NCBI GenBank assembly: GCA_951804945.1
Contig: OX638149.1
Location: 101,618,001-101,682,000 of the forward strand
Reading direction: 5' to 3'
DNA length: 64,000 bases
Origin: Podarcis cretensis
Lineage: Eukaryota
Shown here one piece after another: positions 30,286 to 33,605 of this stretch; positions within the stretch are counted from its first letter, which is position 1, and each line of letters starts with the position of its first letter. The position numbers and the translations under genes were made by a program. Below the pieces are notes generated by a model, which was given only the letters and a program-made list of their open reading frames with translations, had not been told where the DNA came from and did no database searches.

Positions 30286-30724
30286 ATTATCTATTTGCTA
30301 AAAGGTATTTGGGACTTCCCTTCTCCTTAGTCTGGAAACTACTGGTAGTGGACAACACTGAAACACAATTGCTGACAGGAGTGATAGAGTGTGTCAGCAC
30401 ATTATACTTGTGCTCAATGATCTGCAATGGCTGCCAGTTTGCTATTGGGCCATGGCAAGGTGTATATATCTATAGTCCATAACACACTGGCATCAGTTTA
30501 CTGCAAGTGCCACACAACATCCATCATTCCTTTAGTGTGGCAACACCTTGCTCTGCAATGCCCTGCCTACTCACATTAGGCAGGCATCTTCACTATGACG
30601 TTTTAGAGGCCGGCTGAAAAATTCTGTTTCAGAGGACACAATATCTTATTACACCTTCTTTTAAATTAGTTTAATGTTTTACTGCATTTAGATGTTTCAA
30701 ACTGTGTTTAAAGATTTTTAATTA

Positions 30725-32451
30725 CACTTCCGGGTTGGCGCCATCACCGAATGGCGGACTCCCTCCGAGCTCCGGAGGGAGCCTGCTCGGCAGGGGTTGG
30801 GTTCTACCGCGTCGGTGTCACGGGGACCCTCAAAAACCATGGGCGCTGAAACCCATGGGCATGGTGACTCGGCGGGCACCGTTTGCGCCCCCCGACCCGC
30901 GAAGGAGCCTTTTTAAAGGCTACGGAGCGGGAGCCAGGGGGGGTGTGGTGCTATGAGTCCTCCACTTCCCCTGCCGAGCGAAGCCGCATGCCATTTGGCG
31001 GAGAGCGCTGACTTCTTCCATTGAAAATTCGGATTAAAAAGAATAACCTGTGAGCAATTGGAAACTGGACTTAAAAAGGGAAAAAAATTTAAATTCGGAG
31101 CGAGCGGGGGAGGTGCAAAGAGGAAGTCCATCTCCCCCCTGTCGTAGAGGATTTAAAGCAAAGGATTTAACAACTAAGATCGAGTGCTACCTTGGTTTGA
31201 TAAAGTTACTAATTTCACGATGGAAAATTATAAGACTGGGCTGGAGGAGAAAAGTAGAACGTGAGCTAAAATGCAACCCCCCCCCCCCCGGGAACCGGGA
31301 GCGATCTGCGAGAGCGCCGGGAGAGGAGAAACAGAGGCTTTGACAGCTGTCAAAGGAGCTGTCAAAGCTGAAGAATAAAAAGAGAATTTTGTTATGAGGA
31401 CTTTGCCGGTTACATTTGTTACAAATTAGATATAAATTGTTTAAAACAAGGAATAACAAGTTACTTTGACTGTTGGGTGCGATCTGGAAGGAAACTGAGT
31501 TACTATAATCCCTCTAGAGGGGCTGTGGGACACTACAAGTATTGTTGGCATGGAATTTGAATTGGACTTTTTATCTCCTGGGAAACTGCAGAAATGGAAC
31601 ACTATTTTGTCTACAGAGGTCTCTACACTAAAGGAGACAATAGATTTATCTATTGAAGAATGGAAGGGACTTGACGTAAAGTTTTGTTCCTGAATAACAA
31701 AGCCTCTGTAGGGGATTTAGAAGCTTTTGGAATTGGAACATTTTTGCAGGAGAGCAGGAAAAGAAACTAGAGGAAAGTGAGGAGAGAGAATAATAAGAAC
31801 AACATGAACAACAAGAATTGGATAAAGTTGGAAGTGGGAACATTTGGGACATCCAGATTTGAAAGGTTTAAAGAAACAAAATTGGAGTTTTACTCTTAAA
31901 TACAGAGATCTGGATGGAAAAAATGGACCTTTTTGAGATAGAGTTTTTCTGAGATTGGACGCTCGAAACTAAAGATGATTAAAAAGATGGCAAAGACTAT
32001 TAAAAAGACGGCAAAGTGGACTTGTGAAGGATTTTGGCCTAGATGTGGGATCTCCAGGATGACAACAGGCATTGATGGACATTGGGGAACGCAACCGGGA
32101 AAGGGGGGAGGGAAATTTGGAATCCAAAGGGTGTTAAATTATATTTTATTCTATTTTCTATTTTCTTTTATTTTAATCTGTTCTGCATATTAAAGAGGGG
32201 AACTCGTGGAAGGGAGCGGGGTCGATTTTAGGGGATGGAAAAACATTTTTAACATTGGGTTAATTATAATAAGTTTAAAATTTGGGGTAAGAACTTGTTG
32301 AATCTATTTGAAGGAATTGGAATACAAGAGGGGGTGGGGTGGGGAAGTCCTGGAAAGATGCCAATGGAAATAAGGTTATAAAATGGATGTTTTATTTCTT
32401 TTCTTTTTTCTGTTATATTTGAAAATGTTCAATAAATATTATTAAAAAAAA
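30725..32451 (+). mobile_element. Full-length non-autonomous L1-derived retroelement (1.7 kb, no intact ORF)
   Basis: 16-bp TSD TAAAGATTTTTAATTA (30709-30724 and 32452-32467); AATAAA plus A-tail; CpG-rich 5' UTR and G-rich 3' UTR homologous to the 32660-35805 element. Confidence 0.85.
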
Positions 32452-33605
32452 TAAAGATTTTTAATTAAGATTTATTTTTAATTGTGCTGTTTTAATGCAG
32501 ATCTGTTTGCCACCCTGGACTTCTTTAGGGAAGCATATTAAATAAATAAACTAATTCATCTTCATGTAGTAATAGGCAATATATTGCATACTCTTGCCCA
32601 CTGAGTTCAGTGTTCCAGATAGTGTCAGCACCATGAAGCAACAATTTGATATTCTTAAGGGGACTTCCGGGTTAGCACCATCGGTAATGGCGGAATCCTT
32701 CTGACTAGGAGGGATTTGCCTTGAGGAAATAGGGTCTGTCCGCTACGGCGAAAGCAGAGACCCCTCCAAAATCACAGGCGGGCGAAGCCTGTGAGCATGG
32801 GATTCGGCGGGCACCTTTTGCGCCCCCCCAGTTCGTGGGGAAACCCAGCCACGGGTTCCGGAGCGAAGCGGGGTGAGTGGCGCGGTGCTGTGAATCGACT
32901 GCTTCTTCCTTGGAGCGAAGCCGCACAGCCGTTACTGGAGAGCGCTGACTTCTTCCTGGGACAATTCAATTTAAAAAGCAACTACCCATGAGTAGGACAA
33001 ATTAGAGGGGGGGGGGAAGGAGGAAAAAGGCTTAATTTGGTACCGAAGCGGGGAGGTGTAAACAGGAAGTCCACCTTCCGCTTTTGTAAATAGATCAAAG
33101 CAAAGAGAATACAAGCTAAATTCTTCAAAAACTGATTGGAAAGGACTAAATTCCTAACACAAAAAGTATCGACCCCCCCCTGGAAGTAGGGGAAGGAGGG
33201 GGGAAGCTTTGGACTATATATACCTGCAAGAGAGAGGGGAGGAAGCTAAAATCCACCCCTCAAAACCTGGGAATGGGCTGCCAATAGACAATAAGACTGC
33301 CGTACTTTGAATTGTGTATTGACTGTGAATAGACCACTCGCTGACAGCTAGCAGCAACAGAGATACATTGTTTTCAGCTGTCCTCTTCTGTTCTTAAAAA
33401 GGAGGAAAAGCAACTGGAAAGTATCTGTACATTGAAACTGTTTATTTTTCGCTTGAGTTGGGGTTTAAAAGGTATTATTTTGAACTATTGCAACTGTTTC
33501 CCCCTAGAGGAAGTTTCTGAAATTGATACTAGGGGAATTTTTCCACTGGCAAGATAAACTGTGTTGCTGTGGGACTGACCTTGACTCTTTTATTGTTCAA
33601 GTGTT

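Follow-up and report, generated by a model that had tools for sequence, protein, structure and literature searches.

Structure of the element

The window analysed here is a 64,000-nucleotide stretch of the Podarcis cretensis genome (contig OX638149.1, positions 101,618,001–101,682,000). At window positions 30725–32451 it contains a full-length copy of a retroelement that is flanked by perfect target-site duplications of 16 bp. The copy ends in a polyadenylation signal (AATAAA at 32431–32436) and eight A residues (32444–32451). Duplications, signal, and tail all agree with the original prediction, which was made from the sequence of the window. The parts of the element are listed in Table 1.

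Table 1. Features of the retroelement and its flanks, in window coordinates
Feature	Position	Strand	Basis or remark
Left target-site duplication, 16 bp, TAAAGATTTTTAATTA	30709–30724	+	Identical to 32452–32467
L1-derived 5′ head, likely internal Pol II promoter; begins ACTTCCGG	30725–31180	+	nhmmer, composition
Remaining 5′ leader	31181–31540	+	Conserved blocks, weak colinear L1 match (E 0.005–0.2)
Decayed mini-ORF, homologous to the intact 174–215-aa ORF of sister lineages	31541–32062	+	Coordinate mapping, profile
Residual 47-codon micro-ORF above the old N-terminal helix	31550–31693	+	ATG-led frame
DNA block conserved like the promoter head in the non-coding branch	31589–31685 (coordinates ±1)	+	Tree length
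Family-specific 3′ UTR	32063–32284	+	Colinear with coding relatives; no match to sampled L1s
L1-like 3′ end: G-rich block, T-rich block, AATAAA, poly(A)	32285–32451	+	nhmmer
Right target-site duplication, 16 bp, TAAAGATTTTTAATTA	32452–32467	+	Identical to 30709–30724

Both ends of the element are homologous to L1. Element positions 2–412 resemble the neighbouring L1 (67%, E 7e-16), and so does a G-rich block of 135 nt close to the 3′ end (element positions 1562–1696; 69%, E 1e-6), which had been recognised from the outset. In nhmmer searches, the 5′ head (family-profile positions 1–460) matches the 5′UTRs of full-length L1s with E 2e-64 (reversed control, E > 5), and the 3′ end (positions 1540–1727) matches L1 3′UTRs with E 6.5e-14 (reversed control, E 0.37). 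The element middle yields only weak colinear blocks with L1 (E 0.05–0.2), and a profile of the coding relatives described below reaches E 0.005 in this region. The L1-colinear 5′UTR, originally put at about 0.8 kb, is clear over approximately the first 455 nt and continues beyond that point in weak blocks only.

The first 300 nt of the head have a GC content of 65% and a CpG observed/expected ratio of 0.83. Positions 30726–30733 presumably represent an ETS-like site and positions 30750–30757 a YY1-like site. Simple patterns detected no Pol III A or B boxes in the head, and the element has no Rfam match at E values up to 1. A Pol III SINE or a structured-RNA head was rejected on these grounds, the head being an L1 5′UTR. 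An upstream ATG at position 26–27 (window 30751) opens a frame of 32–38 codons in six of six leaders (the window copy and five coding relatives), where it falls within a conserved promoter motif.

Further downstream, the leader features a palindromic TTTGACAGCTGTCAAA block at about 31339–31354 that is common to all lineages. In every lineage the palindrome is followed by a second AGCTGTCA half-site (31339–31364 in the window copy). The TGACAG within it is what we take to be similar to a TALE-homeodomain site. This doubled leader motif has 2,089 exact copies in the genome (control, 0). Another block, CCCTCTAGAGG at about 31510–31520, is also found ∼130 nt upstream of L1 ORF1.

Neither endonuclease (EN), reverse transcriptase (RT), nor a recognisable ORF1 was detected in the window element by blastx against the L1 proteins of the genome or in Pfam, and the longest ATG-led frame on the + strand comprises 72 amino acids. 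The lack of RRM, EN, and RT motifs noted earlier stands, although traces of an ORF1 coil and C-terminal domain (CTD) emerge via the coding relatives. The peptide previously quoted as a single frame turned out to be stitched from two: MEFEL...WKG is a 47-codon ORF that stops at 31691–31693, and the FAGEQEKK... stretch belongs to the next frame. Part of its EQ run is an 18-nt duplication found in some lineages only.

Copy number, age, and insertion hallmarks

Searches of the genome (1.51 Gb, 51 contigs) place the element in a superfamily of 1.6–1.9-kb elements that start with an L1 5′UTR head, finish with an L1-like tail and poly(A), and lie between target-site duplications. The branch of the window element has at least 1,215 copies (exact 33-mer body motif; control, 0), and the coding sister branches have at least 969 (exact motif at the ORF end). 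A mid-body motif was used to pick 40 copies, of which 34 are full length, in that they reach the 5′ end; most of 30 copies fetched by similarity to the element middle are also full length, each with its own duplication. The genome-wide check thus confirmed a multicopy element with a common structure, and a single-copy product of a post-insertion deletion is ruled out by the copy number and by the full-length copies elsewhere.

In the branch, 89 full-length copies were examined, and 70 of them are flanked by individual duplications of 10–22 bp (median 16). The sites are T-rich before the cut and A-rich after it, the first A after the cut being fixed by the trimming rule. Poly(A) tails were found in family copies, and none of 20 head-motif loci is an autonomous L1. 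The branch is recently active, and its youngest subfamilies contain identical copies. The best 40 matches to the element middle are 95–100% identical, and in sister subfamily B, which is 73% identical to the window element over its whole length, 40 of 40 among the matches listed are 100% identical over 441 bp.

Members often lie in tandem with or inside other members (loci L071:2460–5903, L100, L130, L147, L149, and L218); in L071, an A copy carries a B copy inserted just upstream of its poly(A) signal. At least half of the element words are present in 11 of the 24 sequencing runs listed, which carry four species labels and come from four studies; none among these runs holding element words is an RNA run. 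Contigs of three runs that are only guessed to be RNA cover 21–26 of 30 element bins, which provides no evidence for transcription or its starts.

Between the duplication and ACTTCC, only 1–3 G residues are found in 33 of 70 copies, four in one copy, and nothing in 13. These extra 5′ residues may reflect a variable start or a copied cap. Together with the CpG-rich L1 head they fit transcription by Pol II, which we infer to start from this head. The view that the element is non-autonomous with an L1 head and tail, put forward in the original prediction, is borne out by the two end matches and by the lack of EN and RT. The superfamily likely represents an L1-mobilised retroelement, and, judging by its ends, L1 ORF2p is likely to mobilise it in trans. 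L1s with open ORF2 frames of 1,224–1,265 amino acids are present in the genome; the sampled L1 heads are only 65–74% identical, which counts against naming the exact helper.

An ORF that is intact in sister lineages and decayed in the window branch

Within the branch of the window element, none of 30 copies fetched has a long ORF, and no conserved ATG, frame, or acidic run was found. The longest stretches without a stop are no longer than expected by chance (P 0.14–0.23), and an intact ORF in this branch was rejected.

Sister lineages do possess one. Family D, which was reached via a diverged element adjoining a B copy, is 1.85 kb long and colinear from end to end with the window branch (E about 1e-200). 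Its 174-amino acid ORF is intact in 20 of 20 fetched copies, which were picked by DNA similarity. Among copies carrying the leader motif, 29 of 38 contain an intact ORF of 174–215 amino acids with a common start position and a common end. This sample consisted of 40 of the first 100 places listed, chosen as not known A, B, or C copies; one B copy, one C copy, and the second motif match in L218 were left out of the count. Representatives of eight coding lineages are only 29–72% identical, yet share start and stop.

The start and stop of the ORF in five of five coding relatives map to window positions 31541 and 32060, and a profile of the mini-protein matches the three frames of the window copy with E values of 1e-9, 6e-6, and 0.01. 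The decayed ORF suspected in the window is therefore real and homologous to the intact ORF of the sisters, but it is probably not the element's own, being likely derived from ORF1. The ancestral start corresponds to 31541 instead of the ATG at 31550 that had been proposed. In the window copy, this ATG is lost and the frame is interrupted by several frameshifts and stops, whereas the ancestral stop is kept at 32060–32062. The sister lineages also corroborate an ancestral protein with an N-terminal helix. They do not support a coil-only protein, as ∼130 further residues with CTD-like remnants are present. The ORF has been lost in every copy of the window branch examined and the branch went on spreading, indicating that the protein is not needed in cis.

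Phylogeny of the ORF-less branch

The order of events was addressed with a tree of the first 460 nt from 34 elements (17 ORF-less and 17 coding copies), rooted with six L1 heads as outgroup. The 34 elements form a group of their own, separate from the L1 heads (97/92), within which the 17 ORF-less ones make up one clade (100/97) nested among the coding lineages. A single clade of coding lineages is rejected (p-AU 0.0005). The branch of the window element lost its ORF and stayed active. One copy of the ORF-less clade, L141, is intermediate: it preserves the ancestral ATG along with a frame of 55 codons, enough for the N-terminal helix alone.

The ATG-led 47-codon frame above the old helix could mean that the window branch is still coding and that this micro-ORF yields a working helix. 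Of 87 full-length copies scored, 70 contain the frame, among them copies of the two youngest subfamilies, A and B, in which it starts differently, but it is missing in several lineages. The underlying block (31589–31685) is free of indels and unusually conserved, with a tree length of 0.39 as compared with 0.37–0.48 in the first two head windows and 0.74–1.83 in the other 14 of 17 windows; no unusual folding of the block was detected (z −0.7 and −1.0). Against a working micro-ORF stand an omega of 0.87 across 17 representatives and several expanded lineages that lack the ATG or carry a stop in the frame. In addition, A and B are over-represented in the sample, and subfamily A has nine upstream ATGs. 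We regard a working micro-ORF as improbable.

Origin of the mini-protein

The family D protein has no match in Pfam, the PDB, or a set of 5.8 billion proteins, and the 47-residue peptide has none among longer proteins. A 109-residue chance frame gave one repeat-summed match to an unrelated 2,754-residue repeat protein and was discarded. Structure models of the mini-protein (mean pLDDT 50, pTM 0.22–0.29) are confident for an N-terminal helix (residues about 3–45) and hardly anything beyond it; the helix features a heptad pattern in six of six proteins viewed.

A profile of the mini-protein aligns with the ORF1 coil at 17.0 bits over residues 1–104, in register from M(A/T)SEE to KEKQTNLR, compared with 5.5 bits for the reversed control and values below 0 for ORF2. 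None of 60 window-shuffled sets reaches 17 bits (maximum 15.8); one set comes within 1.2 bits of the coil score, and coils and purine-rich DNA match easily. At the DNA level, a nucleotide profile of the coding relatives matches ORF1 with E 1e-4 and a gap of ∼180 nt across the RRM (51 matches versus one in the reversed control). With hhalign, the N- and C-terminal parts align in order with the coil and the CTD (P 0.0009 and 0.025–0.046; controls 0.19–0.59), the reported probability of ORF1 homology being only 9–24%, in the twilight zone. The tail motif RASDVRSP of the mini-protein is similar to RASDRRSP of ORF1.

These alignments suggest that the mini-protein is very probably a shrunken ORF1p, in which the N-terminal coil is kept, most of the RRM is deleted, and CTD remnants are drifting. 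Alternatively, the small ORF could encode a captured or newly born coil protein lying between L1 ends. Such an origin would agree with the lack of database matches of the family D protein, with the low hhalign probability, and with the decayed copies, which by themselves show no significant ORF1 ancestry in hmmsearch, in a frameshift-aware profile alignment (z at most 1.0), or in a DNA profile-profile test in which ORF1 windows scored no higher than ORF2 windows. It is quite unlikely, given that the ORF lies directly after an L1-like leader, that the N- and C-terminal matches are colinear in both protein and DNA, and that the tail motif is shared.

Selection on the mini-ORF

Counting of substitutions gave pN/pS values of 0.29–0.77 in 19 of 19 pairs. 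The value for the ORF (0.50) lies within the range of its flanks (0.49–0.75; P 0.11), and because the flanks give the same values, these counts were dropped as evidence for purifying selection. In-frame indels were likewise discarded as evidence for coding, since the copies had been chosen for open frames and the argument is circular.

Codon models yielded an omega of 0.63 overall, with 0.40 for the first 39 codons, 0.81 for the middle, and 0.73 for the C-terminal part, whereas controls were mostly between 0.67 and 0.92. When windows of equal size are compared, omega is 0.39 for the first 39 codons, whereas the 33 control windows average 0.82 and none falls under 0.42; shifting the frame of the N-terminal window raises omega to 1.17 and 1.35. 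The N-terminal window was picked after inspection of the data, and the 20 aligned copies had been chosen for open frames. In the dN/dS check envisaged in the original prediction, the N terminus falls below the controls, whereas the rest of the ORF is near the control range. Our reading is that the helix is under selection and that the remainder is kept open but drifts.

Proposed mechanism and role of the protein

We consider it probable that the superfamily descends from an L1 that lost ORF2 and whose ORF1 shrank, and that it is transcribed from the L1 promoter and copied in trans by L1 ORF2p, the window branch being ORF-less. The ancestor would have retained the L1 5′UTR, a reduced ORF1, and the L1 3′ end. 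Its ORF1 would have been shorter by ∼50 residues at the N terminus, would have been without most of the RRM, and would have ended at the RASDxRSP motif. In the coding lineages, only the first ∼40 residues would be selected, forming an amphipathic helix that matches the start of the ORF1p coiled coil and would join the coils of helper ORF1p. One lineage would have broken the frame, kept promoter and tail, and given rise to several subfamilies, copies being identical in the youngest. It is established for L1 that ORF2p captures RNAs ending in poly(A) and inserts them by target-primed reverse transcription. Accounting for the present element along these lines, Pol II would start at the L1 head, ORF2p of L1 would catch the RNA by its L1-like poly(A) end, and insertion would follow by target-primed reverse transcription. 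On this reading, the element works like a Pol II “long SINE” of L1.

The original prediction had also envisaged co-assembly with helper ORF1p. When the helix was modelled in a complex with a pair of ORF1p coils, without the use of alignments, the score was 0.47, whereas the best of three controls scores 0.00. The tool grades this result as weak. Between runs, at least 93% of contacts are shared, and the partner pLDDT is at least 75. In calibration, the mark was reached by 51 of 78 solved and two of 108 mismatched pairs (39/65 and 2/126 for eukaryotes), and passes at 0.60 or under comprise five of the 78 solved pairs and all four mismatches that passed. The pass may reflect the likeness of a homologous coil and not binding, and homology could thus explain the score. 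The available text of one study (PMC5381506) raises the possibility that ORF1p of lizards does not form trimers at all. The support that the model lends to co-assembly is weak, and insertion of the helix into helper ORF1p coils is, among the roles considered, the most likely one, at somewhat less than an even chance.

A different role for the same helix would be to poison helper ORF1p multimers, acting as a competitor in a dominant-negative manner and thereby releasing ORF2p or damping L1. Truncated human ORF1p that contains the N terminus and the coil suppresses L1 in trans, according to the portion of the study available (PMC5605252). Only the helix is under apparent selection in the coding lineages, and ORF-less lineages thrive next to coding ones, as cheaters would. 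The difficulty lies in evolution: a benefit shared in trans would probably be hard to maintain by selection across many lineages, and we judge a competitor to be unlikely. Still less likely is that only the act of translation matters, through ribosome loading or escape from decay, with the helix signal as a leftover. The frame is open over 174–215 codons and evolves close to neutrality along most of its length, as this explanation would have it, but the first 39 codons have an omega below every control window, and the ORF-less lineages are at least as active. Building on a helix that joins helper ORF1p, the lacertid system could comprise three tiers, namely autonomous L1, mini-ORF1 parasites that plug their helix into the ORF1p coil, and ORF-less descendants. 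This full scheme is tentative and on balance doubtful.

Comparison with other non-autonomous retroelements

The closest known elements are HAL1 for the coding branches and bipartite non-autonomous LINEs for the window branch, as far as the accessible parts of the cited papers go. HAL1 of mammals is described there as derived from L1 and coding for ORF1p alone (PMC5753468, PMC13756887). Like HAL1, the superfamily is L1-derived (head E 2e-64, tail E 6.5e-14) and non-autonomous, lacks ORF2, and contains one ORF1-related frame in its coding lineages. In contrast to the ORF1p of HAL1 with coil, RRM, and CTD, the frame here is about half of ORF1 (174–215 versus about 340–370 amino acids), with most of the RRM gone in the sisters and the frame broken in the window copy. 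The window branch has no ORF at all, and the host is a lizard in which the element was recently active. The characterisation of the element as more reduced than HAL1 is thus justified.

ORF-absent bipartite LINEs are listed only for RTE, Ingi, Vingi, and R2 in the accessible text of a 2018 paper (PMC5786205), and that of another treats them as typical of RTE (PMC7245038). RIME, NARTc, Bov-A, and the derivatives of Vingi-1_EE and of R2 (PMC5786205) resemble the window branch in having LINE ends, no protein, and presumed Pol II transcription; here, however, the elements belong to the L1 clade, arose via slow decay of a mini-ORF, and kept a middle of about 1.1 kb. The window branch combines both LINE ends with a lack of coding capacity, the 47-codon micro-ORF of many copies having an omega of 0.87. 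It does not consist of two ends joined by one deletion, as ∼520 nt of mini-ORF and a 3′ UTR lie between them. Neither does it have the tRNA, 7SL, 5S, or snRNA head with A/B boxes of a Pol III SINE.

SVA is likewise long, non-autonomous, and moved in trans by L1 proteins, but it is a composite of non-L1 parts, whereas head and tail here are L1's own (PMC3287187, as far as accessible). HeT-A and Ag-Sponge encode one ORF1-type protein that is proposed to multimerise with that of the helper, but belong to the Jockey and CR1 clades and have full ORF1-type proteins (PMC5786205, same text). Truncated ORF1p from defective human L1 loci also comprises N-terminal coil fragments that act on full-length ORF1p; those loci are dead and single, whereas the fragment here is encoded by replicating lineages (PMC5605252, in the portion available). 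A search of openly accessible papers found no description of such a lizard family, and the words “non-autonomous” and “HAL1” are absent from the available text of PMC5381506 and PMC5872511. A catalogued Repbase or Dfam entry is possible.

The superfamily bears on what ORF1p contributes to trans-mobilisation and on why parasites such as HAL1 carry an ORF1. Closely related and recently active lineages differ in the presence of a cut-down ORF1, and selection points to a single helix of 40 residues. Lineages with and without this ORF1 make the value of ORF1 in cis and the minimal RNA recognised by L1 directly testable. The L1 clade would also be added to the small number of LINE groups from which ORF-less derivatives have been reported. 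More than 2,000 mostly full-length, promoter-bearing inserts are probably annotated as L1 fragments or as unknown sequence. If the three-tier scheme were true, a path from a LINE to a Pol II-driven SINE-like element would be visible within one genome, and it would provide the first ORF-absent derivative of the L1 clade together with a natural peptide modulator of ORF1p.

The neighbouring L1 and ORF1-related gene models

The neighbouring L1 (32663–35800) has its own duplication of ∼17 bp, as judged by eye, and an insertion breaks its ORF1 near the ORF1 end. An in-frame deletion of about 3.1 kb joins its endonuclease to the C terminus of ORF2. The deletion junction occurs in one of 24 readable loci, and the deletion is therefore probably single-copy and not a family. 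Among 19 protein matches to ORF1 of this L1, seven are named, and all seven come from Podarcis, which points to a lacertid host.

Two TRIM39-like gene models of Podarcis muralis (P0007 and P0008) contain a RING/B-box part fused to the end of the L1 ORF1 coil, the RRM, and the CTD. Their ORF1 part corresponds to the C-terminal half and is 68% identical to ORF1 of the neighbouring L1; these fusions possibly represent exonisation or a gene-model artefact.
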